Positions 9,701 through 47,772 of a stretch of DNA of 64,000 nt are shown one piece after another. The position numbers and the translations under genes were made by a program. Below the pieces are notes generated by a model. It was not told the DNA's origin and made no database searches. It saw only the letters and a program-made list of their open reading frames with translations. The stretch is from Eggerthellaceae bacterium (lineage in GTDB: Bacteria; Actinomycetota; Coriobacteriia; Coriobacteriales; Eggerthellaceae): assembly GCA_017459925.1 (NCBI GenBank), contig JAFUCC010000002.1:24400-88399 (forward strand). Direction: 5' to 3'. Position 1 is the first letter of the stretch. Each line of letters starts with the position of its first letter.

Positions 9701-10653
9701 TCTTGCTCGTCGAAGCCTTGGTTTGCGTCGATGTCGGCGTTGCGCGTCACGCAGATGACGTTCGTGTGCTTGATCTTGTACATGCTGAAGATTTCGGGAA
9801 CGAACATCTCGATGGCGTGCTCGAGGAGGATGAACTGGAATCCGCGGCCAGGCAGTTTGATGACGCGTTCACACTGGTGCGGCAGCGGGATGAGCCCGAG
9901 CACCACGCCCTCGGCGCCGCCTTTTTCCTTCTTGGACTTTTCCTTGTCCTTCTTCTTTTTCTTCTTCTTGCGCTCTTCTTCGGTCGCTTCGTCGTCGAGG
10001 CGCACGAGGATGTAGAGCTTGCCGTTTTCCAGATGGGGGAACGGGTGGCGCGAGTTGATGATCTGCGGCGAGAGGAACGGCTCGATGTTGTGCTTCACGA
10101 GGCCGAACAGGTAGTTTCGCTGCTCTTCGGAAAGGTCGTCGGGACGCAGGTGCCGCACGCCTTCCTTCGCCAATTGGCCGCGCACATGCTCGTACGTCGA
10201 TTCGTGGATGGGGTAGAGCTCGTGGCAGCGCTCGTGGATGGCGCGAATCTGCTCTTTGGCCGTCATGCCCGTCTTGGAATCGACGACGGGCGGGTCGATG
10301 AACGACAGGTCGGTAAGACTGCCGACGCGGACCATGAAGAACTCTTGGAGGTTGCTCCAGAAGATCGAGATGAAGTTGAGCCTCTCGAGCAGCGGAACTG
10401 ATTCGTCAGCGCCCTGGTCGAGCACACGCTCGTTGAACGTCAGCCAGGACAGCTCGCGGTTCTGCATGAAAACGCTGCCGCTGTCTTCCTCTTCCTCTTC
10501 GTCTTCATCGGCGGCAAATTCGTAGTAGGCATCGTCGCCTTCGGAGGCGCCGGCAAGGGCGGCTTCGTCGGACAGGGGTGCCAGAGGCTCGCTTGCTTGG
10601 TCGGCTTCGAACTCGCCAAATGCCGTGCCGTCGGTGATGCTCTCTTCGCTCAT
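6733..10653 (-). CDS. ppk1: polyphosphate kinase 1 fused to ~550 aa acidic low-complexity C-terminal tail
   Basis: PPK1-type sequence over the N-terminal ~750 aa ([14 protein letters not shown], two PLD-like His motifs [11 protein letters not shown] and [12 protein letters not shown]). ATG at 10653 preceded by GAGGAA; the track start 10671 is an upstream GTG. Tail from ~8400 down to 6736. Confidence 0.9.
7625..7872 (-). repeat. (Glu-Pro)n coding microsatellite-like repeat inside ppk1 tail
   Basis: Translates to [78 protein letters not shown]; DNA is iterated GGYTCNGG units. Confidence 0.9.
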
Positions 10654-10755
10654 ACGGTTTCCTCTGTTCACGATGGGTTAAAACATCATTACACTATACC
10701 TCATCAAGGTGCATATTTGGTGTATCATCGAGGCATCTTCGAGAAAGGAAACCGC

Positions 10756-12513
10756 ATGCTCGAGCAGGTCGATTTCACGGTAGACAAGATATCCAAGGAA
10801 GACTACAAACCCCGTCACAAAGAGCTCATCAACAAGCTCGTCGTGCTGCAGCAGCAAGCGCGCGCCAAGGGAATTGGCCTCGTGGTCCTGTTCGAGGGGT
10901 GGGGCGGCGCCGGGAAGGGCAGCCGCATTTCCGACCTCATGTACGAGCTCGATGCGCGTGCGACCACGGTTCACGTGACGGAGGACTTCGATGTCGAGGC
11001 GGCACGCAAGTTCGTCGGCTCCGAATGGGGCGTTTCCGACTTCAAGCCCGTCATGCAAGAGTTTTGGCAGTCACTCGGCGAACGAGGCACCATCACGTTC
11101 TACGACCGCGGCTGGTATACGGCGGCAATTGACCAAGCCCTGTTCGAGCTTACGGGCGACAAGCCCAAAGCCGTCAAGAAGCTCGCCAAGAAGGCTAAGG
11201 GCCATCCGCTCGTGGAAGACGGCGCCTCGAAAGCCCGCGGCGAATTCCATGGCGACGTCGTTGCAAGCTACCAGCGCATCGCGCACAACTTCGAGCAGAT
11301 GCTGGTCGACGACGGCTACATTGTCATCAAGCTGTTCGTTCACGTGTCGAAAGAGGCCCAGAAGAAACGCCTCGAGCGCCTGCACGACAACCCCAGCACC
11401 ACGTGGCGCGTGAGCCAGGAGAAGCTCGACCAGGTGATGCACTACGATAGGGCCTACCAGCTCTACGACCGACTGCTCGAGACGAGCAACTTCGCATTCG
11501 CCCCCTGGACGCTCGTGAACGGCGAGGACAAGCGCGCCGCGAACCTGCAGGTGGCGCAAGCGCTCGTCGACGCCATCGAGCATGCGCTGGCAGCCGGTCC
11601 AGACGAAGCTACCGAAGCAGCCAAGAAGAAGGCAGCCGAGAACTCGGCGCGCGCGGCAGCCGCCATCGGCGATGGCGGAGCCGAGGAGGCGAAGGTCGAC
11701 GATGCGGAAGCCGTCCGCAAGGCCGCCGAGGCCGAAGCCGCCCTGCAGCATTCTCAGGCTCCGCGCGGCTCGAACTACATCATCATGGCGGGGTATCCGC
11801 AGATCGACCATTCGAAAGCCAAGCCGACTATCGGAACCGACGAGGAATACAAGGAGCAGCTGAAGGCCGAGCAAGCGCGCTTTGCCGAGCTCGAGCTGGA
11901 AATGTACCAGAAGCGCGTGCCGCTCATGCTCATGTACGAGGGTTGGGATGCCGCCGGCAAGGGCGGAAACATCAAGCGCGTGTGCCAGGCCATCGACGCC
12001 CGCGCATATACCATATTCCCGTCGCCCGCGCCCACCAAGCCCGAGCTCATGCATCCGCATTTGTGGCGCTACTGGATCCGCCTTCCCAAGGCCGGCCATG
12101 TCGGCATCTACGACCGCAGCTGGTACGGACGGGTGCTCGTGGAACGCGTCGAGGGGTTCTCGTCGACCGACCAATGGTCCCGCGCCTACGATGAGATCAA
12201 CGCCTTCGAGTACGAGCTCGTGCAGTGGGGTGCGATCCTGCTGAAGTTCTGGGTCGACATCACCCCCGAAGAGCAGCTGCGCCGATTCGAGGCGCGTCAA
12301 GCCGATCCGAACAAGATTTGGAAGATCACCGACGAGGATTGGCGCAACCGCGACAAGTACCCCCAGTACAAGCAGGCCGTCGACGATATGTTCCGGCTGA
12401 CATCCACCACGTTCGCGCCGTGGATCGTGCTCGAGAGCGATGACAAGCGTTACGCCCGCGTTCAGGCGTTGCGCGCAATCAACGAGGCGCTCGAGGAGCG
12501 CATGCACAAGTAA
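10756..12513 (+). CDS. ppk2: two-domain polyphosphate kinase 2 (polyphosphate:AMP/NMP phosphotransferase type)
   Basis: Two PPK2 P-loop modules (LVVLFEGWGGAGKGSRI and LMLMYEGWDAAGKGGNIKRV) joined by an Ala/Glu-rich linker; ATG 10756 behind GAAAGGAAA; divergent from ppk1. Confidence 0.9.
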   Translation: MLEQVDFTVDKISKEDYKPRHKELINKLVVLQQQARAKGIGLVVLFEGWGGAGKGSRISDLMYELDARATTVHVTEDFDVEAARKFVGSEWGVSDFKPVMQEFWQSLGERGTITFYDRGWYTAAIDQALFELTGDKPKAVKKLAKKAKGHPLVEDGASKARGEFHGDVVASYQRIAHNFEQMLVDDGYIVIKLFVHVSKEAQKKRLERLHDNPSTTWRVSQEKLDQVMHYDRAYQLYDRLLETSNFAFAPWTLVNGEDKRAANLQVAQALVDAIEHALAAGPDEATEAAKKKAAENSARAAAAIGDGGAEEAKVDDAEAVRKAAEAEAALQHSQAPRGSNYIIMAGYPQIDHSKAKPTIGTDEEYKEQLKAEQARFAELELEMYQKRVPLMLMYEGWDAAGKGGNIKRVCQAIDARAYTIFPSPAPTKPELMHPHLWRYWIRLPKAGHVGIYDRSWYGRVLVERVEGFSSTDQWSRAYDEINAFEYELVQWGAILLKFWVDITPEEQLRRFEARQADPNKIWKITDEDWRNRDKYPQYKQAVDDMFRLTSTTFAPWIVLESDDKRYARVQALRAINEALEERMHK

Positions 12514-15198: not shown

Positions 15199-15269
15199 TT
15201 GAACGTTGTCCCAGGGACGATGTTCAAATTGAAGGAATATTTGAACATCGTCCCTGGGACAACGTTCAA
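15199..15269. repeat. family-A paired palindrome (copy A1)
   Basis: 31-bp perfect inverted arms TTGAACGTTGTCCCAGGGACGATGTTCAAAT / ATTTGAACATCGTCCCTGGGACAACGTTCAA, 9-nt loop; between purN stop and XdhC-like start. Confidence 0.95.
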
Positions 15270-25213: not shown

Positions 25214-28200
25214 ATGGCGAAGATGAAGAACACGATGCGGAAGCTGACCGCGATGCTCGCGGCCGTGGCGCTGACAGTCGGCCTGTGCCCGGCTGGCGCC
25301 TTCGCAGTTGCGGGGGGGGGTACGCTGATTCCTCGCTAAACGACACCAACGCCATTACGGAGCAAGATAACGAGGCCGACGCCCAAGACGAGGGTGTTGG
25401 CCTCGGTGCTGATTCCAACTTGCAAGTGCAAGGCGGAATGACTGCACAGGCGATGAACGATCCGGATAATCCAGTGTATTGGAAATACGATTCCGCTACG
25501 TCTACCTTGTATCTCGGTGGATCAAAAGAAGGGATTCTAGAAGACGCGAACGAGTTCAGGGCTACCAAGACGAATAACACAATTTGGGCATTTCAAGAGC
25601 CTAACGTATCGGGATCGGGCGGGTGGTTTACTGGGGACATGGCAACCCAAGTTCGTAATGCAAAAAGCGTGAAGGTGGTCAATCCCCTAACAACTAAAAG
25701 CATCCACGGATGGTTTAAGAACATGACGCAACTTACTGATGTCGATTTGGAGGGCTACACGCCCATGGTGTCGAACTACTCTGTCGATTACGTATCGGCA
25801 TTTGAGGGTTGCACGTCTTTGGTAACGCTTAATGTGAAGCCCCTCTTTTACCATCCCGACCCGAACGAATACTACGTTTCCGTCTTCTATGATCGCATGT
25901 TCTACAATTGCTCTTCGCTTACGACGCTGCTTTTTCCGTCTGAGTACGTGCACTACGCTTGGGATCCGGGCGGTTCGAATCCAATCGAATACTACTACTA
26001 TGCCAAGCGCGGAGGCGGGAACATAGAATCCAGTCGTCTGTCGGCTGAAAAAATGACGTTTTACGGCTGCACTAAGCTTATCGGCGGCGAGGGGACGACG
26101 GTGGAAGCGCAAGTGTCACGTTTCGGAGGCACGGGGACGACTTTTCCTGAAACCATGGAAGGGTGCTTGGGGGTTGCGAACCTGTTTCAGATTGACGGGA
26201 CTATCGACGATCAAACTCCGTTTGCTGGCAGTTACGGGGTGTTCACGGCGTCGTCTTACGGCCTTGTTTACGACTCTAATGATGGGTCGCATCAAAGCAA
26301 GTCATACGATATCGCGCTAAATGCGAAGCCGACATTGGCATCAGCATCTTTCTTGGGGTTCAATTCGAGCGACCTGGTGTTTATTGGGTGGAACACCAAG
26401 GCTGACGGCTCGGGCACGTCATACGAGGTTGGCACTGAACTGGAAATGAGCCGAGCGACCATACTATACGCCCAATGGGCCTATCCTGTTATCTATGATG
26501 CTAACGGCGGCAAGGCGGGCACGGCTCCTGAAGACCAGATGAAAGAGCCCGGCAAGAACCTCACCCTGCATTCCGGCAAGCCTTCGCGCGACCCGGACCT
26601 GACACCCGTCACGACCACGCTGGCCTACAACGACGGCAGCGATGCCACGTCTGAGCTGAAAACCAATCGCACCGAGGAGTGGGAGTTCAAGGGCTGGACC
26701 ACTGAAGACACGGTAAGCGCCAGGAAGGGTGTCGTGACCGATGCGGAGTGGGATGCCTTGGAATCTTCGAAAAAGTATGCTCCGGGCGATACGTATTCAA
26801 CTGACGCCGAGCTGACGCTATATGCGCAGTGGAAGGCGAAAAACCCCTTGTATGCTTCTGTGGCATTGCCGAAGCCGGCCGATCGCGAAGGGTACGATTT
26901 TCTCGGGTGGTACACGGCTGCTGAGGGCGGTACCAAGGTCGGCGATGCGGGCGCGACCATCACGCCCGAGACCGATGCGACCCTGTACGCGCATTGGGCG
27001 AAGAAGTCCTATGAGGTCACCTACGATGCGAACGGCGGCGCAGGCACGCTCGAATCCGATACGAAGACCTATGGAGATACGCTCACACTGAAGAGCTCGG
27101 GCGTTTCGCGCGATAACGAGTCGGGTAAGGTCACGCTAACGCTCAACTACAAGGGCGGCTCGTATCAGGCGGGGAAGGACTCCGATTACTGGGCGTCTAA
27201 GAGTTCGGATGAGGCTACGACCACCACTACGTTCACGTTCACGGGCTGGAGCAGCAGCGCAGACGCCGAGACTGCGGAGTATTCTGCTTCCAACTCGTGG
27301 GCCTACACGGCCAACGCGGCTGCGAACCTGTACGCCGTCTGGTCCTCGAACACAACCGGCTACTCGTCGTACACGCTTCCTGATGCGACGCATCCCCAGA
27401 CTGGCGACAAGACGCACACGTTCAAGGGCTGGACGACTGCGCAGTACATCTCGACAGAATGGGGCAGCATCCCTGAAAGCTCGAGGTGGGAGGCGGGCGC
27501 GAGCTACGGCCCCGTAGAGGCCGACACTACACTCTACGCCGTATGGGATCCGCCGGCTTACGCTATCGAGTACGATGCCAACGCGGGCGACGATACGGTA
27601 TCCGGCGACCTCAGCGCGCAGAGCTATACGGCTGATGTGAACGTGCAGCTGCACGCTGCCCTCACGCGCACTCCTAAGGATGCCTCCTTCACCGTGACTT
27701 TCGACGCCAACGGCGGCGCGGTGTCTCCCGAGTCTGAGACGGCGACTAACTCGACCACGTACACGTTTAAGAAGTGGAACACGCAAGCCGACGGCGGCGG
27801 CACGGCATATGATGCGAGTGCCCAATATACGATCAACGCCGATGTGAAGTTGTATGCCCAATGGGAGAAGGGCGGGTCGGTTGCGTCCGTCAATCTGCCG
27901 ACGCCCACGCGCGACGGCTACAACTTCCTCGGCTGGACCGAAGCAGCTGATGGATCTGGCAATAAGCTGACTGGAACTTACACGCCGTCAGACGATGTGA
28001 CGCTGTACGCCCAGTGGGAGGCGAAGACCTACGCCGTGACGTATGACGTCAACGGCGGCGATGCGGACAGCAAGCCGGCCGATGCGACGAAGACTCACGG
28101 GGTCGACCTCGAGGTTGGGGCGGCTGCCACGCACGCGTATACGACTGGCGTCGTAACCGTGAAGTTCGACGGGCATGAGGGAACGGCGGCCTCAGGCTCG

Positions 28201-37677: not shown

Positions 37678-38604
37678 ATGGCAAACAGGACAGAGACGGC
37701 TCCCACGTTCCAGGACGTCATCATGAACCTGCAACGGTATTGGGCCGACCAGGGCTGCGTTGTGTTGCAGCCTTACGACAACGAGGTCGGTGCTGGCACG
37801 TTCCACACGGCCACCACGCTGCGGTCGCTGGGTCCGGGGGTGTGGCGCACGGCATACGTGCAACCGTCGCGTCGCCCGACAGACGGACGCTACGGCGAGA
37901 ACCCCAACCGCCTGCAGCATTACTACCAGTTCCAAGTCATCCTGAAGCCGTCTCCCGATGACGTGCAGCAGCTGTACCTCGACTCGCTGCGCGCCATCGG
38001 AATCGACATCGACGAACACGATGTGCGCTTCGTCGAGGACGACTGGGAGTCCCCGACGCTTGGCGCCTGGGGCCTCGGCTGGGAGGTTTGGATCGACGGC
38101 ATGGAAGTCACGCAGTTCACCTACTTCCAGCAGGTCGGCGGCTTCGAATGCAGCCCGGTTCCAGCCGAGATCACGTACGGGCTCGAGCGTCTGACCATGT
38201 ACATCCAAGGCGTCGACAGCGTCTATGACATCGTCTGGTCACGCGGCGAGGACGGCACCGTGTTCACATATGGCGACGTGTTCCTCGAGAACGAGCGCGA
38301 GTTCTCGGCGTACAACTTCGAAGTCGCCGATACCGATTTCCTGTTCGGAGAGTTCGACCGTTACGAGCGCGAATGCAACCGCGTGCTCGAGGCGGGCCTT
38401 CCGCTGCCGGCGTACGACTATGTGCTGAAGTGCAGCCATGCATTCAACCTGCTCGATGCGCGCGGCGTCATCTCGCAGACCGAGCGCATGGGCTACATCT
38501 TGCGCGTGCGCACCATCGCCAAGGCGTGCTGCGCGAGCTATCTCGAGCATGTCGTGGGCGAGAGTACCTCGACCGAGGGGAAGGGGGCCGAAGATGGCGA
38601 ATAA
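37678..38604 (+). CDS. glyQ: glycine-tRNA ligase alpha subunit
   Basis: [37 protein letters not shown]; ATG 37678 behind GAAGGAG. Confidence 0.95.
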
Positions 38605-40678
38605 GACGCTTGCCTTTGAAATCGGCACCGAGGAGCTGCCCGCATTCGATTTGCATGCCGCAACCGAGAAACTCGGCGATTTGGCTTCTACGGCGCTTGA
38701 CGGCGCAAAGATTCCGCATGGCGACGTTTCCGTGTACACCACGCCGCGCCGCCTCATCGTCATCGTCGCCGATGTTCCCGAGGCTACCGAAGCCGCCGTT
38801 GAAGAGTTCCGTGGCCCTGCTGCCAAGATCGCGTTCGACGAGAGCGGCGAGCCGACGAAGGCTGCCATCGGTTTTGCACGCGGCAAGGGCGTCGACCCTG
38901 CGAGCCTCGAGCGCCGCGACGAGAACGGCACCGAGTACGTGTACGCCGTGAAGGAGACCCCTTCGCTTGACGTGGTCGCATTGCTGCCCGACTTGCTCGG
39001 CAACCTCATCACGGCTATCTCTTGGCCTAAATCGCAGCGCTGGGGAAGCCGCCGCGAGCAGTTCAGCCGTCCGGTGCGCTGGATCCTCGCGATGCTCGGC
39101 GAGACGGTCGTGCCCGTCGAGTTCGCTGGCCTCGTAGCCGGGAACACGACGCGCGGCCACCGGTTCTTGAACCCCGGTCCGCATGAGGTTGCGTCGGCTG
39201 AGAAGCTCATCGACGTGTTGCGTGCTGCGAACGTCGTTCCGAGCGAAGCAGAGCGCGAGAGCTCGATTCGCGAGCAGGTGAGAGCCATCGAGGCCGAAAC
39301 GGGGCTCGTCGCCGAGCTTCCCGCGAAGACGATGGAAGAGGTTGTGAACCTGACCGAATTCCCTACTGTCATGGTCGGCGAGTTCGACGAGCTGTTCCTG
39401 GCCGTGCCGAAGGAGATCACGGTTGACGCCATGCTCGTTCATCAGCGTTACTTCCCGCTGTTCAATGCAGACGGCACGCTTTCCAACAAGTTCCTCATCA
39501 CGTCGAACGGCAATCCCGATTTCCGCGAGAACATCGTCGACGGCAACCAGCGCGTTGTCGCCGCGCGCCTCTATGACGCGAAGTTCTTCTATGACGAGGA
39601 CCTGAAGAAACCGCTCGAGGCATATGTCGAGCGCTTGGGCGAGGTCGTGTTCCAGGAATCCCTCGGCACGACGCGCGCCAAGACCGACCGCATCGTCGAG
39701 CTTGCGAAGCGCCTTGCTGCAGATGCGGGGCTCGCGGGCCAAGACGCCGCAGATGCCGAGCGAGCAGCTTATCTGTGCAAGGCAGACCTTGTCACTGGCG
39801 CGGTGGTCGAGTTCACGAGCGTTCAGGGCATCATGGGCCGCTACTATGCGAAGGCTGCAGGCGAGACCGACCAGGTTGCTGAAGCCATCGCAGACCATTA
39901 CCGTCCGCGATTCGCAGGGGACGACACGCCGGCCAGCATGGTGGGCAAAGTTGTTGCCGCAGCTGACAAGCTCGACACGATTTGCGGCCTGTTCGCTGTG
40001 GGGCAAGGCCCGACTGGCTCTTCCGACCCGTTTGCCTTGCGCCGTTCCGCCATCGGCATTTTGGCGATGCTCGAAGACGGCCTCGACATCTCGCTCATCG
40101 ACGCCATCGACTCCGCGCTCGACATTTACGAGCAAGGCGGATTGAAGTTCGACCGTGAAGCCGTGCGTGCCGAAGTCGTCGATTTCTTCGTTACGCGCAC
40201 CAAGGTCATGTTGCGCGATTCCGGCATAGCAGCCGATACCGTCGACGCCGTTCTCGCATCTGGCGTTGCCGAGCCTATGGTCATCATGGGCCGTGCCCGC
40301 GCGCTTGAAAGCGCCCGAGCCAACGACAAGGAAACGTTCGACGATTTGGCCACGGCTTACGCGCGCGCGAACAACCTACGCGATGCCGAGCTTGGCGCCG
40401 ATGTCGACGAGTCGCTTTTCGGCGATGAGGAGAAGGCGCTGAACGCTGCCGTGGCAGCCGCCGAATCCGCCGTTGCCAATGCGCTCGCTGCCGATGATTA
40501 CCCGCAGGCTCTGTCTGTGCTCGCTGGTTTGCGCGGGCCTATCGATGCGTTCTTCGAGAACGTCATGGTGATGGATGAGGACGACAAGGTGCGCGCCAAC
40601 CGCCTGAAGCTCCTCAACCGCTTCGTCGGCGTGTTCGGGAACGTCGCGGACTTCGGGAAGATGTCGAAGAGCAAGTAA
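38594..40678 (+). CDS. glyS: glycine-tRNA ligase beta subunit
   Basis: [17 protein letters not shown]; ATG 38594 overlaps the glyQ end by 11 nt. Confidence 0.93.
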
Positions 40679-40680
40679 CC

Positions 40681-40783
40681 GATGAGTAGCAGGACTGTCC
40701 TGCTACTCATTTTCTAGCAACCAACCGTGCTCGCAGACTGTCATAGGAAATGAGTAGCAAGACAGTCCTGCTACTCATTTTTT
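40681..40783. repeat. family-B paired palindrome (copy B2)
   Basis: ATGAGTAGCAGGACTGTCCTGCTACTCAT (40682-40710) and ATGAGTAGCAAGACAGTCCTGCTACTCAT (40750-40778), 39-nt spacer; between convergent glyS and the VTC gene. Confidence 0.95.
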
Positions 40784-41681
40784 ACGAAGCGCGCTGCATG
40801 TCCTCTAAGCCGTAGCCTGGTGATGGCTGGATCAGGGTTTCGGTATTCATGGCGCGCTCCTTGGATGTGGGGATGCGGTAAATCGAGACCTTGCCGGAAT
40901 CGGTTTTGCGCACTTGGACGGCGCCTTGTTCGGCGAGGACGCGCTTGTAGGCATTTCCGTATTTCGAGAAGGAACGCGGGTAAGCTCCAACCGACGAGAG
41001 AAGCTCGCAGAGCCATACAGGGTAGCCGCCTGCGCACTTGATCTCCATGATCACCTGATCGGGCGCAGTGACGGGGCGGCGTTGAACCGAGCCTTCCTCC
41101 ATAAGGTCGACGTAGCAGATGTCTTCGTCGAACGTGATGCGGTCGACGCAGTCTTCGTCTGCCGGGTCGATCTTGCACCACGCTTCTCGCAAGCAGCTGA
41201 TGAGCATCGACGGTTTCAGGCCTTCGTAGCGGTCGAAGAACGCATCGAGCTCGCGTGCGATTTGCACTTTGCCGGGGAGCAGCTCCTTGCTGCCATCTGT
41301 TCCGGGAATGGGGAGCTGCGTTTGCGCGTCCTCGTAGGACATGCCGTTGATGTAGGCTCGCGCGCCTTCGGCGCTCATGCGCACGCGGCGTTTGTACACG
41401 ATGCCCTTGAACTTCTTCTTGATCTCGACGAATACCGACTCTGCTTCTGAAAACGGGCCGTAGCTGCGGATGCGCAGCTTCTCTTTGTAAAGGGGCTTTT
41501 CAAGCGATCTGCAGATCAGCGAGCGGTCGGGCGTGTCCAAATAAAGGCTGTCGATGCGCGTCGCCCCGTAGTCGTCGAGGCGCATGTGGGCGGCGAGCCC
41601 TGCCTTGATGGCCTCGCATTGCCCGGTCGTTATGAGGTACTTCTTCTCTTTGCGTTCAAAGGTGTCTGCTGCAGTAGCCAT
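40782..41681 (-). CDS. VTC-domain protein (triphosphate-tunnel, Vtc4-like polyphosphate polymerase fold)
   Basis: FERKEKKYLI N-terminal acidic/basic tunnel motif, SLYLDTPD, KEKLRIRSY, VEIKKKFKGIVYKRR, CLREAW, RITFDEDI, VIMEIKCAGGYPVWL, SFSKYGNAY. Collinear with bacterial VTC-domain proteins as I recall them. ATG 41681 behind AAGGGAAAGGAAG. Confidence 0.8.
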   Translation of the reverse strand: MATAADTFERKEKKYLITTGQCEAIKAGLAAHMRLDDYGATRIDSLYLDTPDRSLICRSLEKPLYKEKLRIRSYGPFSEAESVFVEIKKKFKGIVYKRRVRMSAEGARAYINGMSYEDAQTQLPIPGTDGSKELLPGKVQIARELDAFFDRYEGLKPSMLISCLREAWCKIDPADEDCVDRITFDEDICYVDLMEEGSVQRRPVTAPDQVIMEIKCAGGYPVWLCELLSSVGAYPRSFSKYGNAYKRVLAEQGAVQVRKTDSGKVSIYRIPTSKERAMNTETLIQPSPGYGLEDMQRAS

Positions 41682-41711
41682 GTTGGGCTTCCTTTCCCTT
41701 GTGCCATGAGC

Positions 41712-41744
41712 ATGGTACGCGTCGCACCTGAATCGAAGCTGAAA
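41712..41744 (-). promoter_or_regulatory. Pho-box-like operator plus -10 for the VTC gene
   Basis: Minus strand reads TTTCAG-cttcg-ATTCAG-10 nt-TACCAT. Confidence 0.55.
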
Positions 41745-41750
41745 GAGCGT

Positions 41751-41782
41751 TTTCAGGCAGGTTTCAGCTTCTCGGCTAGAAT
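41751..41782 (+). promoter_or_regulatory. Pho-box-like operator plus -10 for the two-component operon
   Basis: TTTCAG-gcagg-TTTCAG-9 nt-TAGAAT, 28 nt upstream of the response-regulator ATG. Confidence 0.55.
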
Positions 41783-41809
41783 GGGCTTGTACGCGGAAAG
41801 GCGGAACCA

Positions 41810-42484
41810 ATGCAGATACTCATCGTTGAAGACGACATTCGGCTGGCCCAGGCAGTTGGGAAAATCCTCGAGGAAAACGACTATCAAGTCGATATGGTGC
41901 ACGATGGGCAATCAGGTCTCGATTACGCCGAGTCGGGCATTTACGACGTGGTGATCCTCGACGTCATGTTGCCGAAGATGGACGGGTTCGAGGTGTCGAA
42001 GCAGCTGCGCCGCAAGGGCGTAGACACGCCGGTGCTCATGCTTACGGCACGCGCCCAGATTCCCGACAAGATCGAAGGGCTCGATTCGGGCGCAGACGAC
42101 TACATGACCAAGCCGTTTTCGCCGGCAGAGTTGCTGGCGCACCTGAGGGCTCTCACGCGGCGCACAGGTCAGGTCGTGTTCGAGACCCTTGCGTTTTCCG
42201 ACCTCGAGCTGAACCTCGAAAGCCACGATTTGAAATGCGGCAGCAAGTCCATCAACCTGTCGTACAAAGAGTTCTCGCTCATAAACATCCTCATGACCAA
42301 CCATGGGCAAATCGTGTCGAAAGAAACCCTCATCTCGAAAGTCTGGGGCGTGGAGTCAACCGCCGTCGATAATAATGTGGAAGCATACGTGTCGTTCTTG
42401 CGCAAGAAGCTGAAGTTCCTCGGTTCGAAGGCGCAAATCGAGACGATCAGGAAAGTGGGATACCGCCTGACCGACGAGGGTTAG
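41810..42484 (+). CDS. OmpR/PhoB-family response regulator
   Basis: MQILIVEDD, receiver Asp in VILDVMLPKMDG, winged-helix C-domain ending IETIRKVGYRL. Confidence 0.93.
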   Translation: MQILIVEDDIRLAQAVGKILEENDYQVDMVHDGQSGLDYAESGIYDVVILDVMLPKMDGFEVSKQLRRKGVDTPVLMLTARAQIPDKIEGLDSGADDYMTKPFSPAELLAHLRALTRRTGQVVFETLAFSDLELNLESHDLKCGSKSINLSYKEFSLINILMTNHGQIVSKETLISKVWGVESTAVDNNVEAYVSFLRKKLKFLGSKAQIETIRKVGYRLTDEG

Positions 42485-42485
42485 C

Positions 42486-43832
42486 ATGCTGAAAAAACTT
42501 CGCATCAAGTTCGTGGCGATCATCATGGCCTCGGTGGCCGTGGTGCTCGCCATCGTGTTCACGGGAATCTGCGTATCCGAATACCAACGCAGCATGTCGA
42601 CGGTGAGCGAAGCGCTGAGCACTTCGATCGACAGGGCGAGTAACGACGGCCTTAATGCACCCGATCCGTTCATGAAGGGCGGCATGCGGTTTGACATCGA
42701 AAGCGCTTTCGAGGACTTCGATGATGTTGACGAGCTGTCCGACATGGTGAACGAGTTCATCGATGAACGCGAATTCGGAGGCCCGCGCATTGGTGGAGGC
42801 CGCGAGGAAGAACGCTCTCTTGTGCCAGTGGCCGTGTACGTACTCGATTCCTCCGGGACCTACACCGCCGTATCCCGCTACACCACCGCTTATATCGAGG
42901 AGGATGTGCTTACGTCTGCTTCAAGCCAGCTTGTAAGCGTTGGGGAGGGGAGCGGTGAGCTTTCGAGCCTGGGGCTCGTGTACGAGAAGCGCTCGGTTGA
43001 AGGATTCACCTATGTCGCCTTCGCCGATGCATCGTATGCGTCGAGCTGGCAATCGCTCGCAGTTTCGCTTCTAATTGCGGGAATCCTCACCCTTGCCGTG
43101 TTCTTCGTGATCGCGCTATTGCTCTCGAAGTGGGCGCTCAAACCCGTTGAAGAGGCGTGGACCGCGCAACGTCAATTCGTGGCCGACGCATCTCATGAGC
43201 TGAAGACCCCGCTAACGGTCGTTCTGGCGAACACGTCTATCCTGCTGAAGCACCCAGAGTCCACCATCGCGAACCAAAGCCAGTGGATCGAGAGCACCCA
43301 AGTGGAAGCCGAGAGCATGCAAGGGCTCGTGAACGAGATGCTTGAACTTGCCCAGGTCGAATCGCGGGCAAATGTGCAGCATGAAGAATTCGATTTCAGC
43401 GATATGGTGGCCGGCGAGACGCTGCAGTTCGAGTCTGTCGCCTACGAGCGCGGCTGCCGGTTCGAGGAATCGGTTGCCGAGGGAATCACGGTTTCCGGAG
43501 ACGCCCAACGCCTGCGCAAGATGACCTCGACCCTTATCGAGAACGCCTTGAAGTACGTCGATGAGGGCGGGTTGGTCGAAGTGAAGCTGGAAGCCAAAGG
43601 CGACATAGCCCATATGACCATTCACAACACTGGCTCGACAATAGCGCCCGAGGATCTTCCGCATATCTTCGACCGTTTCTACCGCACCGACAAGGCGCGC
43701 ACATCCGGTACCGGCGGCTTCGGCCTCGGCCTCGCCATCGCCCGCGAAATCGCCCGCGAGCACGACGGCGACATAACCTGCGACAGCAACGAATCAGGTA
43801 CCACTTTTACTGCAACCCTCCCGATAGCTTAA
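42486..43832 (+). CDS. sensor histidine kinase (two TM helices, ~150 aa external loop)
   Basis: H-box ASHELKTPLT, N-box ENALKY, G-boxes HNTGSTI / GTGGFGLGLAIA. Confidence 0.92.
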   Translation: MLKKLRIKFVAIIMASVAVVLAIVFTGICVSEYQRSMSTVSEALSTSIDRASNDGLNAPDPFMKGGMRFDIESAFEDFDDVDELSDMVNEFIDEREFGGPRIGGGREEERSLVPVAVYVLDSSGTYTAVSRYTTAYIEEDVLTSASSQLVSVGEGSGELSSLGLVYEKRSVEGFTYVAFADASYASSWQSLAVSLLIAGILTLAVFFVIALLLSKWALKPVEEAWTAQRQFVADASHELKTPLTVVLANTSILLKHPESTIANQSQWIESTQVEAESMQGLVNEMLELAQVESRANVQHEEFDFSDMVAGETLQFESVAYERGCRFEESVAEGITVSGDAQRLRKMTSTLIENALKYVDEGGLVEVKLEAKGDIAHMTIHNTGSTIAPEDLPHIFDRFYRTDKARTSGTGGFGLGLAIAREIAREHDGDITCDSNESGTTFTATLPIA

Positions 43833-43902
43833 AAAGTAAAAGAGAGTAGCCCACTGCAGAGGGAAGGGGGTGAGGGCGATTCCGCAGCTACGCGAGGCGG
43901 CA

Positions 43903-44006
43903 AGTTGAACGTTACCCCAGGGACGATGTTCAAATTGAAAGAACGCTTTAACGCAAAGTTGAAGTTTCAACAAATTTGAACATCGTCCCTGGGGTAACGT
44001 TCAACT
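43903..44006. repeat. family-A paired palindrome (copy A3), nested in an outer 13-bp inverted repeat
   Basis: 34-bp perfect arms AGTTGAACGTTACCCCAGGGACGATGTTCAAATT / AATTTGAACATCGTCCCTGGGGTAACGTTCAACT, 36-nt loop; outer GAGGGAAGGGGGT (43859-43871) pairs with ACCCCCTTCCCTC (44037-44049). Confidence 0.95.
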
Positions 44007-44081
44007 AGCTGGTGAGTCTGCGAGGACAAGCCCGAAACCCCCTTCCCTCAACCCGGAGCGGACAGAAGGACAAACGCATCC

Positions 44082-44114
44082 TTTCAGCATCTTTTAAGTT
44101 TCCTTTCCTACTAT
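44082..44114 (+). promoter_or_regulatory. Pho-box-like operator plus -10 for the DUF4956 gene
   Basis: TTTCAG-catct-TTTAAG-10 nt-TACTAT, 41 nt upstream of ATG 44155. Confidence 0.55.
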
Positions 44115-44154
44115 TTGCCTATCAACGGGAAACCTTTGGGAAAGGAAACCAATC

Positions 44155-44853
44155 ATGGATGCATTGTTCACTTCGGTGCTCGGCACGACCGAGTCGGCTA
44201 TGACGACGGTGACGACCGCCGGCTTCATGTGGTGCACGCTCGCGTCGATCGTCCTCGGCTTGGTGTGCGCGCTCATCTACATGTACAAGCACGACTACTC
44301 GAAGAACTTCGTCGTGACGCTGGCGCTCATGCCCGTCATCGTGCAGATGGTCATCACTCTCGTCAACGGAAACCTTGGCGCGGGCGTCGCAGTCATGGGC
44401 GTGTTCAACCTCGTGCGCTTCCGCTCGATAGCGGGTACGGCAAAGGACATCGGAAGCGTGTTCCTGGCAATGGCCATCGGCCTCGCGACCGGTATGGGCT
44501 ATATCGGCGTTGCCGCCATCCTCACGGTCGTCGTGGGCGTGTTCAACATCATTTACGTCACGACTCCGTTCGGAAGCCCGCGTGAGTCCGCCAAGAAGAA
44601 GCAGCTGAAGATCACGGTTCCCGAGGACCTCGAGTTCGAAGGCGCGTTCGACGAAGTGCTCGCGAACTACACGGCGACGTGCGAGCTGCAGAACGTCTCG
44701 ACGAGCAACATGGGCAGCTTGTACCAGCTTGAGTACTTGGTTTCCATGAAGGCTGACGGGCTCGAGAAGCGCATGATCGACGAGCTGCGCTGCCTGAACG
44801 GCAACCTGAAGATCTCGCTGGGGTCTCCGCAGATGAAACGCGAAGTCCTGTAA
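44155..44853 (+). CDS. DUF4956-family membrane protein
   Basis: Four predicted TM helices with LVRFRS and GLATGMGYIG motifs, then a soluble tail LKITVPEDLEFEGAFDEVL ... DELRCLNGNLKISL; matches DUF4956 proteins as I recall them. Confidence 0.8.
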   Translation: MDALFTSVLGTTESAMTTVTTAGFMWCTLASIVLGLVCALIYMYKHDYSKNFVVTLALMPVIVQMVITLVNGNLGAGVAVMGVFNLVRFRSIAGTAKDIGSVFLAMAIGLATGMGYIGVAAILTVVVGVFNIIYVTTPFGSPRESAKKKQLKITVPEDLEFEGAFDEVLANYTATCELQNVSTSNMGSLYQLEYLVSMKADGLEKRMIDELRCLNGNLKISLGSPQMKREVL

Positions 44854-44928
44854 GACGCTGGTGTGGGGTTGGTGGGCGATTCCGGAGCGAAATGCTTCAA
44901 GGCGACCAAAGCATCGTCCATCCGCGGA

Positions 44929-44966
44929 AAAACGACCCAGGTGGTTATCCATCTGGGTCGTTTTGC
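44929..44966 (+). terminator. intrinsic terminator after the DUF4956 gene
   Basis: AAAACGACCCAG-12 nt-CTGGGTCGTTTT. Confidence 0.8.
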
Positions 44967-45060
44967 GTTACTATTGGATTCGTAACAAGCGAGTGTCCTT
45001 CTGGCGCTCGTTTCCGTGTTGGTTTCAGCATAAATGCAGCATCGAGTGGAGGAGTGCAAA

Positions 45061-47772
45061 GTGGCTGAGGCAGTCAAGCGCGTCTACAAATTCGGCAAGG
45101 ACGCACGGGGCAACAACGTAACCGAAGGCAATACCGACATGAAATACGTGCTCGGCGGCAAGGGCGCGAACCTCGCCGAGATGGCCAACATCGGCCTGCC
45201 GGTGCCTCCGGGATTCACCATCACGTGCCAGACGTGCATGGAGTATGCAAATGCCGACAACACCTGGCCGGAAGGCGCTCTCGACGAAATCGCCGAGTAC
45301 CGTGCCGACCTGGAAGAGCGCATGGGCAAGCGCATCGGCGACGACGCCGACCCGCTGCTCGTTTCCGTCCGCTCGGGCGCTCCCATGTCGATGCCCGGCA
45401 TGATGGACACCGTCCTCAACCTCGGCCTGAACGACCGTTCCATCAACGGCCTCATTGCCCAGACCGAGAATCCCCGTTTCGCATGGGACAGCTACCGCCG
45501 CTTCATCCAGATGTTCTCCAACGTGGTCATGGGCATCGACGGCGACAAGTTCGAGCATGCCATCACGGCCGCCAAGGACGCCAAGGGCGTCAAGGAAGAC
45601 ACCGAGCTCGACGCCGCCGACCTCGAAGCGCTCGTAGCCACTTTCAAGGGCATCTTCTCCGACAGCGTCGACGCTGCCGAGTACCCCGAGCTCGTCGTTG
45701 ACGGCAAGGTTCAGTTCCCGCAGGACCCGATGGCCCAGCTGAAGCTCGCCATCGAGGCCGTGTTCGGCTCTTGGAACAACCCGCGCGCAACGCTCTACCG
45801 CAAGCAGAACAAGATTGCCGACGACCTCGGCACCGCCGTCAACGTGCAGTGCATGGTGTTCGGCAACAAGGGCGACACATCCGCCACGGGCGTTGCCTTC
45901 ACGCGTAACGCCGCCGACGGCACCAAGGAATTCTACGGCGACTACCTCGTTAACGCCCAGGGCGAAGACGTCGTCGCCGGCATCCGCAACACCTCGCCGA
46001 TCTCCGAGCTGAAGCACGTCTCCGGCCTCGAGACCGCCGGCCAGGAGCTTGAGGACATCTTCGTGCTGCTCGAGAACCACTTCCGCGACATGATGGACAT
46101 CGAGTTCACCATCGAGCAGGGCAAGCTGTTCATGCTGCAGACCCGCGTCGGCAAGCGCACCGCCGCCGCCGCGCTGAAGATCGCCATCGACATGGAGAAG
46201 GAAGGCCTCATCACCAAGGAAGAGGCCGTCATGCGCGTCGCTCCCGAGCAGCTCGACCAGCTGCTGCATCCGCAGTTCGACAAGAGCGCCAAATACGACG
46301 TCGTGGCCCGCGGCCTGAACGCTTCTCCTGGCGCTGCCGTCGGCGCTGCCGTGTTCTCGGCTGAAGCCGCCGTTGCCGCCGCCGAGGAAGGCAAGAAGAC
46401 CGTCCTCGTGCGTTGGGAGACCACGCCCGACGACCTCGCCGGCATGATCGCCGCCGAGGGCATCCTCACCTCGCATGGCGGCAAGACCTCGCACGCGGCC
46501 GTCATCGCCCGCGGCATGGGCGCTCCGTGCGTCTGCGGCGTCGAAGCCTTGAAGATCGACGCTGAGAAGAAGGAAGCCGCCATCGCCGGCACCGACATCG
46601 TCATCAAGGAAGGCGACCTCATCTCGCTCGACGGCACCACGGGCATCGTGGTCCTGGGCGCGGTCGACCTGGTGCAGCCCGAGCTCACCGGCGACCTCGA
46701 CACCATCCTCGAGTGGGCTGACGAGTTCCGCACCCTCGGCGTTCGCGCCAATGCCGACAACCCGGCCGACGCGCAGCTTTCGCGCGACTTCGGCGCGCAG
46801 GGCATCGGCCTGTGCCGCACTGAGCACATGTTCCTGGGCGACCGCAAGCAGATCGTGGCCGACATGATCCTCGCCGAGTCGGAGAGCCCCGAGTATTACG
46901 CGGCGCTTGACAAGCTGTACGATGCACAGCAGGGCGACTACTACGAGATGCTGAAGGCCATGGACGGCCTGCCCGTCATCATCCGCCTGCTCGACCCTCC
47001 TCTGCACGAGTTCCTTCCCTCGGCCCAAGAGCTCGCCATCAAGGTTGCTGTCGACGCCGTGAAGGGCGAACACGACCCCGCGATCAAGAGGCTGCTCAAC
47101 GCTGCCGAGAACATGGCGGAAATGAACCCGATGCTCGGCCTGCGCGGCTGCCGCCTCGGCATCGTCATGCCCGGCCTGTCTGCCATGCAGGTGCGCGCCA
47201 TCGCCACTGCCACGGCGAAGCTGATCAAGGAAGGCTTCGACCCGAAGCCCGAGGTCATGATTCCGCTTGTCTCGATGGAAAACGAGCTCATCTACGTCCG
47301 CAACGAGGCCGAGAAGGCCATCAAGGAAGTCGAAGAGCGCGACGGCGTCGACCTGTCCTTCATCGAAATCGGCACCATGATCGAGTTGCCGCGTGCGGCT
47401 ATCACCGCTGACGAGATCGCCGAGAAGGCCGACTTCTTCTCCTTCGGTACCAATGACCTCACGCAGACGACGTTCGGCTTCAGCCGCGACGACGTCGAGG
47501 GCAAGTTCTTCAAGGACTACGAGAACCTGGGCATCATGAAGGTGAACCCGTTCGCGACAGTCGACGACGGCGTCGTGAAGCTGATCGACATCGCCGTCAA
47601 GGGCGGCCGTTCCACGAACCCCGAACTCGTGACCGGCGTCTGCGGCGAGCACGGTGGCGATCCGGACTCCATTCACAAGTTCCACAAGGTCGGCCTGACC
47701 TATGTGTCCTGCTCGCCGTACCGCGTGCCGGTTGCTCGCCTTGCCGCTGCTCAGGCTGCGCTCGAGAAGTAA
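45061..47772 (+). CDS. ppdK: pyruvate, phosphate dikinase
   Basis: GGKGANLAEM, phospho-His TSHAAVIARGMG, GLCRTEHMF, CGEHGGDP; GTG 45061 behind GGAGGA. Confidence 0.95.
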   Translation: MAEAVKRVYKFGKDARGNNVTEGNTDMKYVLGGKGANLAEMANIGLPVPPGFTITCQTCMEYANADNTWPEGALDEIAEYRADLEERMGKRIGDDADPLLVSVRSGAPMSMPGMMDTVLNLGLNDRSINGLIAQTENPRFAWDSYRRFIQMFSNVVMGIDGDKFEHAITAAKDAKGVKEDTELDAADLEALVATFKGIFSDSVDAAEYPELVVDGKVQFPQDPMAQLKLAIEAVFGSWNNPRATLYRKQNKIADDLGTAVNVQCMVFGNKGDTSATGVAFTRNAADGTKEFYGDYLVNAQGEDVVAGIRNTSPISELKHVSGLETAGQELEDIFVLLENHFRDMMDIEFTIEQGKLFMLQTRVGKRTAAAALKIAIDMEKEGLITKEEAVMRVAPEQLDQLLHPQFDKSAKYDVVARGLNASPGAAVGAAVFSAEAAVAAAEEGKKTVLVRWETTPDDLAGMIAAEGILTSHGGKTSHAAVIARGMGAPCVCGVEALKIDAEKKEAAIAGTDIVIKEGDLISLDGTTGIVVLGAVDLVQPELTGDLDTILEWADEFRTLGVRANADNPADAQLSRDFGAQGIGLCRTEHMFLGDRKQIVADMILAESESPEYYAALDKLYDAQQGDYYEMLKAMDGLPVIIRLLDPPLHEFLPSAQELAIKVAVDAVKGEHDPAIKRLLNAAENMAEMNPMLGLRGCRLGIVMPGLSAMQVRAIATATAKLIKEGFDPKPEVMIPLVSMENELIYVRNEAEKAIKEVEERDGVDLSFIEIGTMIELPRAAITADEIAEKADFFSFGTNDLTQTTFGFSRDDVEGKFFKDYENLGIMKVNPFATVDDGVVKLIDIAVKGGRSTNPELVTGVCGEHGGDPDSIHKFHKVGLTYVSCSPYRVPVARLAAAQAALEK

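Follow-up and report, generated by a model that had tools for sequence, protein, structure and literature searches.

Promoters activated by PhoB carry a box that replaces the -35 element about 10 bp upstream of the -10 box, and the phoBR operon is autoregulated; for ciaRH, the regulator is also proposed to control its own operon. In systems of the cusRS/cusCFBA and kdpDE type, a dedicated two-component system is encoded divergently from its target operon and governs a local regulon. A locus with features of both kinds is present in a stretch of 64,000 nt of Eggerthellaceae DNA (referred to as the window throughout, with positions counted from its first nucleotide), where the gene for a VTC-domain protein diverges from those of a two-component system, an OmpR/PhoB-family response regulator (RR) and a sensor histidine kinase (HK). 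The window contains exactly three copies of a promoter module, a hexamer direct repeat followed at a fixed distance by a -10 box; these stand before the RR-HK operon, the VTC gene, and a gene coding for a DUF4956 membrane protein. Judging from their sequence and their distribution in related loci, it is likely that all three are promoters dependent on the adjacent RR.

In motif and geometry the modules are closest to TTTAAG-N5-TTTAAG, the box recognised by CiaR in the CiaRH regulon of streptococci (Halfmann et al. 2007, cited after PMC3091779). At activated promoters this box precedes the -10 by 10 nt, and the motif is also given as NTTAAG-N5-TTTAAG, with T3, A5 and G6 both invariant and essential (PMC3091779). 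In PHO boxes, an OmpR/PhoB-family winged-helix regulator binds as a tandem dimer to two direct-repeat units of 11 nt each, the published cores being CTGTCAT in E. coli and GTTCACC in S. coelicolor (PMC4415409), and M. tuberculosis PhoP binds TCACAGC-N4-TCACAGC as a tandem dimer (PDB 5ED4; PMC4832192). DUF4956 genes are the usual partners of bacterial VTC genes (PMC7112168).

Three promoter modules in the window

The VTC and RR genes are separated by a divergent spacer of 128 nt (41682-41809), bounded by the VTC ATG at 41681 on the minus strand and the RR start at 41810 on the plus strand, which is the extent given in the original prediction. Two modules are arranged within it as mirror images, and direct reading bears out every element that had been placed in them, together with its coordinates (Table 1). 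The prediction saw no recognisable -35 at either module, and a consensus scan of 41400-42100 finds no sigma-70-type -35/-10 pair. It took the regulon to consist of RR and VTC; both genes have their module, but this set is too small, as a third module, absent from the prediction, is located on the plus strand at 44082-44114, 41 nt upstream of the open reading frame coding for the DUF4956 protein. The modules are far more frequent than expected by chance: TTTCAG-N5-WTTMAG-N9-10-TANNNT matches three times in the window, against 0.00 matches in 100 dinucleotide-preserving shuffles, and when up to three mismatches are allowed in the repeat just the same three sites are returned.

Table 1. Promoter modules and protein-coding genes of the VTC locus, with coordinates in the window
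Feature	Position	Strand	Remarks
RR-HK direct repeat TTTCAG-gcagg-TTTCAG	41751..41767	+	TTTCAG 41751-41756 and TTTCAG 41762-41767; direct reading; proposed RR-binding site, autoregulation
RR-HK -10 box TAGAAT	41777..41782	+	9 nt past the repeat; direct reading; transcription start predicted at ~41788-41791 (+)
VTC direct repeat TTTCAG-cttcg-ATTCAG	41728..41744	-	TTTCAG 41744-41739 and ATTCAG 41733-41728; direct reading; proposed RR-binding site of the VTC promoter
VTC -10 box TACCAT	41712..41717	-	10 nt past the repeat; direct reading; conserved in the 10-spacer alignment; transcription start predicted at ~41707-41704 (-)
Third module, direct repeat TTTCAG-catct-TTTAAG	44082..44098	+	Upstream of the DUF4956 gene; pattern search
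DUF4956 -10 box TACTAT	44109..44114	+	10 nt past the repeat; transcription start predicted at ~44120-44122 (+)
VTC-domain protein, 299 aa	40782..41681	-	Pfam VTC 5.4e-40; proposed regulated target 1
OmpR/PhoB-family RR, 224 aa	41810..42484	+	Pfam Response_reg 2e-31, Trans_reg_C 5e-21
Sensor HK, 448 aa	42486..43832	+	Pfam HisKA and HATPase_c only
DUF4956 membrane protein, 232 aa	44155..44853	+	Pfam DUF4956 1.1e-17; proposed regulated target 2

Weaker matches to the repeat at 26528 (minus strand), 45023 (plus strand, at the start of ppdK), 57522 and 61161 (both plus strand) were dismissed as chance, because none of them has a TANNNT box 9–10 nt downstream.

Distribution and geometry of the modules in related loci

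A VTC profile scan of one genome per species yielded 80 loci, and the counts that follow refer to these together with the window. The loci are mostly from Eggerthellaceae (Senegalimassilia, Gordonibacter, Adlercreutzia, Slackia, Parvibacter, and many metagenome-assembled genomes, or MAGs), with a few from Firmicutes such as the isolate Ruminococcus sp. FC2018. Strict sites, defined as having at most one mismatch to TTTMAG-N5-TTTMAG and a TANNNT box 9–10 nt downstream, were searched for on both strands of 930,074 bp. A total of 128 were found, 126 of which lie less than 400 nt upstream of a VTC (69), RR (46) or DUF4956 (11) gene; the other two are orphans preceding a NUDIX gene, and shuffled spacers contain none.

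The RR-HK pair adjoins the VTC gene in about 55 of the 80 loci and does so in five gene arrangements, as located by tblastn; in the canonical unit, RR-HK is divergent from VTC-DUF4956-Cthe_2159. The module facing VTC and the module facing RR are both present in 45 of the 46 divergent RR/VTC spacers. When ten such spacers are aligned, from loci whose RRs are 53–98% identical, the mean column identity is 49% and full conservation is confined to the four half-sites and both -10 boxes. Each gene retains its own module where the genes are reordered, both in VTC>RR>HK loci (L011, L014) and in the RR>HK>VTC locus L051; in L045, L055 and L072, where the order is VTC-DUF4956-Cthe_2159-RR-HK, the VTC module has two mismatches. 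The DUF4956 gene is the second gene of the VTC-DUF4956-Cthe_2159 operon in most relatives, and in the clade of the window it has moved behind HK and has a module of its own; the 11 DUF4956-type sites are all in the closest clade.

The modules follow a spacing rule according to the promoter type. The gap between repeat and -10 box is 9 nt in 45 of the 46 RR promoters and 10 nt in 68 of the 69 VTC promoters and all 11 DUF4956 promoters, such that 124 of the 126 sites have the gap of their type, and the repeat always reads towards the gene. The -10 boxes differ correspondingly: that of RR promoters is near consensus (TAnAATG, positions 4 and 5 being A in 97–100% of 44 distinct sites), whereas VTC promoters have the consensus TA(G/C)nAT and DUF4956 promoters TAnCAT/TAnTAT, the boxes of both being of the TA(G/C)CAT type. 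T3, A5 and G6 do not vary among the half-sites. At position 4, 57–81% of the VTC and RR half-sites have C and the others A, and 90% of the second half-sites of DUF4956 promoters have A; many orthologous sites are literally TTTAAG.

The conserved half-sites, the paired modules of the divergent spacers, and the positions of the sites relative to the three genes all strongly support the assignment of these promoters to the OmpR/PhoB class, with an 11-bp repeat about 10 bp upstream of the -10, as originally predicted. The occurrence of sites before both RR and VTC lends comparative support to the further prediction that the RR autoregulates and also controls VTC. Because the targets of the three modules are genes of one conserved unit, which includes the regulator's own operon, the adjacent regulator is favored as the protein that would act on them.

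The two spacer modules of the window could also be viewed as one imperfect palindrome (CTGAAT-N5-CTGAAA, 6 nt, TTTCAG-N5-TTTCAG), and with palindromic repeat elements nearby at 43859-44049 and 15199-15269, the structure might form a hairpin or terminator, mark the end of a mobile element, or have arisen by chance, without regulatory meaning. However, its predicted fold is no better than that of shuffled sequences (z = -1.64, with 14 of 200 shuffles folding as well), a search of 40500-45200 against Rfam gave no family matches and only sub-threshold hairpin-type ones, the third module stands alone, and the number of modules expected by chance is 0.00. In the orthologous loci, back-to-back modules are most often 12 nt apart, the extremes being 6 nt (the window) and 2330 nt, whereas the distance of each half to its own -10 is kept. 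This variation, together with the retention of modules through gene reordering, indicates that they are independent promoter modules rather than a single palindromic operator or hairpin, and explanations by palindromic structure or chance are effectively refuted. Palindromic insertions are present between or beside the modules in some loci, for example in the RR/VTC spacers of L004, L043 and L054.

The modules are reminiscent of the CiaR box in being hexamer direct repeats with an N5 spacer that read towards the gene, 10 nt from a -10 box and without a -35, and T3, A5 and G6 are invariant in both. They differ in that position 4 is mostly C (TTTCAG), which makes them a near variant of the CiaR box rather than an identical one, and in the 9-nt gap of the RR promoter. 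The hosts are also different, Eggerthellaceae (Actinomycetota) as opposed to Streptococcus, as are the targets, which are VTC, DUF4956 and Cthe_2159 rather than the htrA and csRNAs of CiaR. The modules share with the PhoP operator an 11-bp period and a strict spacer, and the CAG part of the half-site is common to the two, but its 5' half is TCA for PhoP and TTT at the VTC loci. As in loci of the cusRS and kdpDE type, one short intergenic region contains the operators for both operons and the regulon is small and linked; the VTC locus is unlike these in having two opposed direct-repeat modules, each with its own -10, and not one shared box.

The same geometry bears on the direction of control. 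OmpR-family regulators can act negatively, as CiaR does at some promoters, and the adjacent RR might bind the modules as a repressor or roadblock, its occupancy of -38 to -22 barring RNA polymerase so that the genes would be expressed while the RR is unphosphorylated. Sites that overlap the -35 region can have this effect, and Actinobacterial promoters can work with a -10 alone. The fixed orientation of the repeats and their 9- or 10-nt distance from the -10, on the other hand, fit contact with polymerase better than occlusion; the geometry is identical to that of CiaR-activated promoters, with the repeat 10 nt from the -10; and the VTC and DUF4956 promoters, with their weak -10 boxes, seem to require an activator. 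We consider repression by the adjacent RR unlikely.

Several observations weigh against dependence of the modules on the adjacent RR as an activator. About 20 loci, in Senegalimassilia, Gordonibacter and others, have a VTC module and no two-component system within 6 kb; there the regulator could be encoded elsewhere, or a different protein could act at the module. A search for RR homologs returned metagenomic proteins only and says nothing on an RR elsewhere in these VTC genomes. Distant loci of the Firmicutes type have TTTAAG repeats with irregular periods of 10–12 bp. The missing -35 is weak evidence of activator dependence, Actinobacterial promoters often being without a clear one. The 80 loci are phylogenetically related, and the search rule itself accounts for part of the hexamer frequencies, although not for the details of the -10 boxes, the spacing rule or the gene specificity of the 126 sites.

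Three groups of loci have additional features. In six Firmicutes/Spirochaetales-type loci (L067, L070, L073 and L077-L079), the genes are arranged co-directionally as RR-HK-VTC-DUF4956 and TTTAAG-type repeats precede both RR and VTC, with apparent periods of 10–12 bp; their RRs are 44–46% identical to that of the window and have a different recognition helix, NVVWV(Y/F)ISYLRKKL. Seven 'cleanbin' MAG contigs labelled Prevotella, Bacteroidaceae, Succinivibrio or Alloprevotella (L019, L046, L048, L052, L053, L061 and L062) contain a GC-rich, Eggerthellaceae-like module and, where an RR is present, one with about 60% identity. These contigs are probably mis-binned and provide no evidence of cross-phylum spread; because several of the Prevotella, Bacteroidaceae and Succinivibrio bins have this appearance, no such spread is claimed. 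Lastly, the two orphan sites are in Senegalimassilia, at about 11482 in L023 and about 11915 in L026, both on the minus strand, and consist of a perfect module (TTTAAG-gcttc-TTTCAG, 10 nt, TACTAT) followed by some 350–500 nt with no convincing open reading frame and then by the gene for a NUDIX hydrolase. An Rfam search of L026 from 10500 to 12300 gave sub-threshold hairpin-type matches only, and the module may serve a small RNA, or else an additional regulon member whose leader is long.

The response regulator, its kinase and a proposed mechanism

The RR has all of the receiver residues D8, D9, D51, T79 and K101 in its translation, and its recognition helix is NNVEAYVSFLRKKL. It scores 183.6 bits against the NCBIfam PhoB model TIGR02154 (cut-off 296.2); the best NCBIfam model is RppA, with 218.6 against a cut-off of 250 and thus also below it, and no CiaR model is among its top NCBIfam matches. 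Judged by these scores, the RR is not PhoB. Among VTC-linked RRs the helix NNVEAY(V/I)SFLRKKL is near-invariant down to 53% overall identity (the orthologs range from 53 to 98%), which fits a conserved DNA target.

The HK gene starts 1 nt past the RR stop codon, and the two genes therefore form one operon. The HK scores 175.7 against the PhoR model (cut-off 334.2), in a match limited to residues 227-444, and it matches PhoR, PnpS and RppB over the catalytic core only; its NCBIfam matches span residues ~170-230 to 446 and are all under the cut-off. No PAS domain is found in it by Pfam. Topology read from the sequence gives two predicted membrane segments, between which lies an extracytoplasmic domain of some 160 aa (residues ~31-189) with no match to any Pfam or NCBIfam model. 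This sensor domain includes a strongly acidic stretch, EDFDDVDELSDMVNEFIDERE, which recalls the cation-binding patches of sensors such as PhoQ and may be a clue to the signal.

These family scores are relevant to the question of whether the modules are true Pho boxes, bound by a PhoB, PhoP or RegX3 ortholog encoded elsewhere, with VTC and the two-component system as members of a Pho regulon. A phosphate connection might be read from the VTC domain, which is the catalytic domain of the yeast polyphosphate polymerase Vtc4 (Pfam 5e-40); the modules share with PHO boxes the organization in two 11-nt direct-repeat units (PMC4415409), they are present in loci without an adjacent two-component system, and the solved structures that match the RR best include RegX3 and M. 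tuberculosis PhoP. However, the half-site TTTMAG(G) is unlike both the E. coli and S. coelicolor cores, having just TTCA in common with the latter, and the adjacent RR and HK are well below the PhoB and PhoR cut-offs, the HK moreover being without the cytoplasmic PAS domain that precedes the catalytic core in PhoR-like kinases. The module is also tied to this RR-HK pair through five gene orders and by a site on the RR's own promoter, and neither pst nor phoU is found at any site in the 930 kb examined, the sole two orphans preceding a NUDIX gene. We regard control by a Pho regulator encoded elsewhere as very unlikely. The original description of the modules as 'Pho-box-like' holds for the class geometry but not for a strict Pho identity, to which both the family scores and the half-site are contrary; on these grounds 'Pho' is a class label only and the modules are not Pho boxes in the strict sense.

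Comparison of recognition helices is consistent with the similarities and differences of the operators. The CiaR helix is VVEVYVSKVRKKL (PMC3091779), and it shares 9 of 13 residues with the corresponding segment of the window RR, NVEAYVSFLRKKL. The RR shares 41% identity with a CiaR sequence, an ordinary paralog-level similarity, and we do not call it a CiaR ortholog. M. tuberculosis PhoP is the best solved-structure match of the RR after DrrD (E=1.2e-44) and has a documented DNA target; its helix is NVVESYVSYLRRKI, in which N212, V213, E215, S216, Y217 and Y220 contact bases (PMC4832192). Three of these six residues (N212, E215 and Y217) are conserved in the window RR, whereas V213, S216 and Y220 are replaced by N, A and F. 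We infer that N212 and E215 of PhoP contact the shared CAG and V213 and Y220 the differing 5' part, with S216 in the middle of the groove. PhoP is also different in its role, as it is a global virulence regulator and not dedicated to a neighboring operon.

That the RR binds the repeats and activates transcription is what would be expected because of the established behavior of PhoB, CiaR and M. tuberculosis PhoP, and a mechanism can be proposed on this basis. The membrane-bound HK would sense an extracytoplasmic signal and phosphorylate the RR at D51; the phosphorylated RR would bind TTTMAG-N5-TTTMAG, with its 11-bp period, as a head-to-tail dimer. With the upstream hexamer spanning roughly -38 to -33 and its downstream partner roughly -27 to -22, the dimer would cover the place of the missing -35 and recruit RNA polymerase to the -10 box 9 or 10 nt downstream. 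The RR-HK operon would in this way be positively autoregulated, and VTC and DUF4956 would be induced along with it. The near-consensus -10 (TAnAAT) and 9-nt gap of the RR promoter may allow basal expression, whereas the weaker -10 (TAnCAT type) and 10-nt gap of the VTC and DUF4956 promoters may impose a greater dependence on the activator.

Neighboring sequences and biological meaning

The VTC protein is 100% identical to P0001, an Eggerthellaceae MAG protein with the NCBI name 'polyphosphate polymerase domain-containing protein'. Yeast Vtc4 is reached weakly (E=0.039) by the VTC profile A1 in a PDB profile search, and a single-sequence PDB search with the VTC protein gave nothing relevant; NCBIfam gave no match for either the VTC or the DUF4956 protein. 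No homolog of Cthe_2159 was found in the window. The leaders of the VTC and DUF4956 genes (41678-41698 and 44138-44158) have a near-identical ribosome-binding context, GGGAAAGGAAgCCcAAcATGG and GGGAAAGGAAaCCaATcATGG, to which that of the RR leader (41795-41812), GGAAAGGCGGAACCAATG, is similar; the likeness of the three suggests a common origin or a common translational signal.

A nested long palindrome (43859-44049) is located between the HK stop and the DUF4956 module, with inner arms of 37 nt at 43900-43936 and 43973-44009 that are 97% complementary and outer arms at 43859-43871 and 44037-44049. The inner palindrome has a second copy at 15199-15269, and the whole looks like a REP/MITE-like repeated element, with termination of the RR-HK operon as a probable further role. 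Two tandem copies of a perfect hairpin with a 14-bp stem, followed by a T-run, are located at 40682-40784, where glyS and VTC converge; they are 91% identical and 68 nt apart. These look like duplicated intrinsic terminators, and Rfam gave only sub-threshold 'mir-8517' matches to them, on both strands.

The relative L081 (1-16681; RR 80% identical) has glyQ-glyS, a PF03618 kinase-phosphatase gene, and HK-RR divergent from VTC-DUF4956-Cthe_2159, followed by ppdK. By comparison with this arrangement, the window (38438-47772) has the VTC/RR-HK block in the opposite orientation with respect to glyS and ppdK, and DUF4956 is left behind HK with its own promoter; the PF03618 gene, which is between glyS and HK in L081, is not at that position in the window. 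Inversion through related palindromes at the edges of the block (40682-40784 and 43859-44049) was considered and rejected, as the two sequences are unrelated.

Gut bacteria commonly have VTC/DUF4956 clusters, and CotH or Cthe_2159 is often part of them. The VTC-DUF4956-Cthe_2159 set, coding for a polyphosphate-polymerase-like enzyme, a membrane partner and a secreted beta-helix protein, is widespread in gut Actinomycetota and Firmicutes. In the literature searched, regulation of these clusters is not described, DUF4956 is mentioned just in lists of genes and, close to Pel loci, as an accessory group without explanation, and no paper ties a two-component system or TTTCAG direct repeats to bacterial VTC/DUF4956 genes. 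The promoter design itself is a classical, textbook one; what is new is the assignment of the regulon and not the mechanism.

We tentatively suggest, as a possibility that falls somewhat short of an even chance, that RR-HK is a dedicated sensor and regulator of VTC-DUF4956-Cthe_2159, that the locus is a self-contained inducible unit with a two-tier promoter code, and that the orphan module drives a further member. In such a code, the 9-nt gap and strong -10 would provide a sensor with basal, autoregulated expression, and the 10-nt gap and weak -10 would make the effectors strictly activator-dependent; in Senegalimassilia, the orphan module would then drive, for example, a small RNA or the NUDIX hydrolase. 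The 9-nt versus 10-nt rule would be a clean natural case of the distance from activator to -10, together with -10 strength, setting basal versus induced expression in OmpR-family promoters. With an operator that is near-exclusive to genes of the VTC module, and with a dedicated kinase, the signal to which the system responds becomes a testable question, as does whether its induction alters polyphosphate or the cell surface. If the RR-HK pair is indeed dedicated to these genes, the operator would be the first experimental handle, through reporters and the inducing signal, on the function of a bacterial VTC protein.

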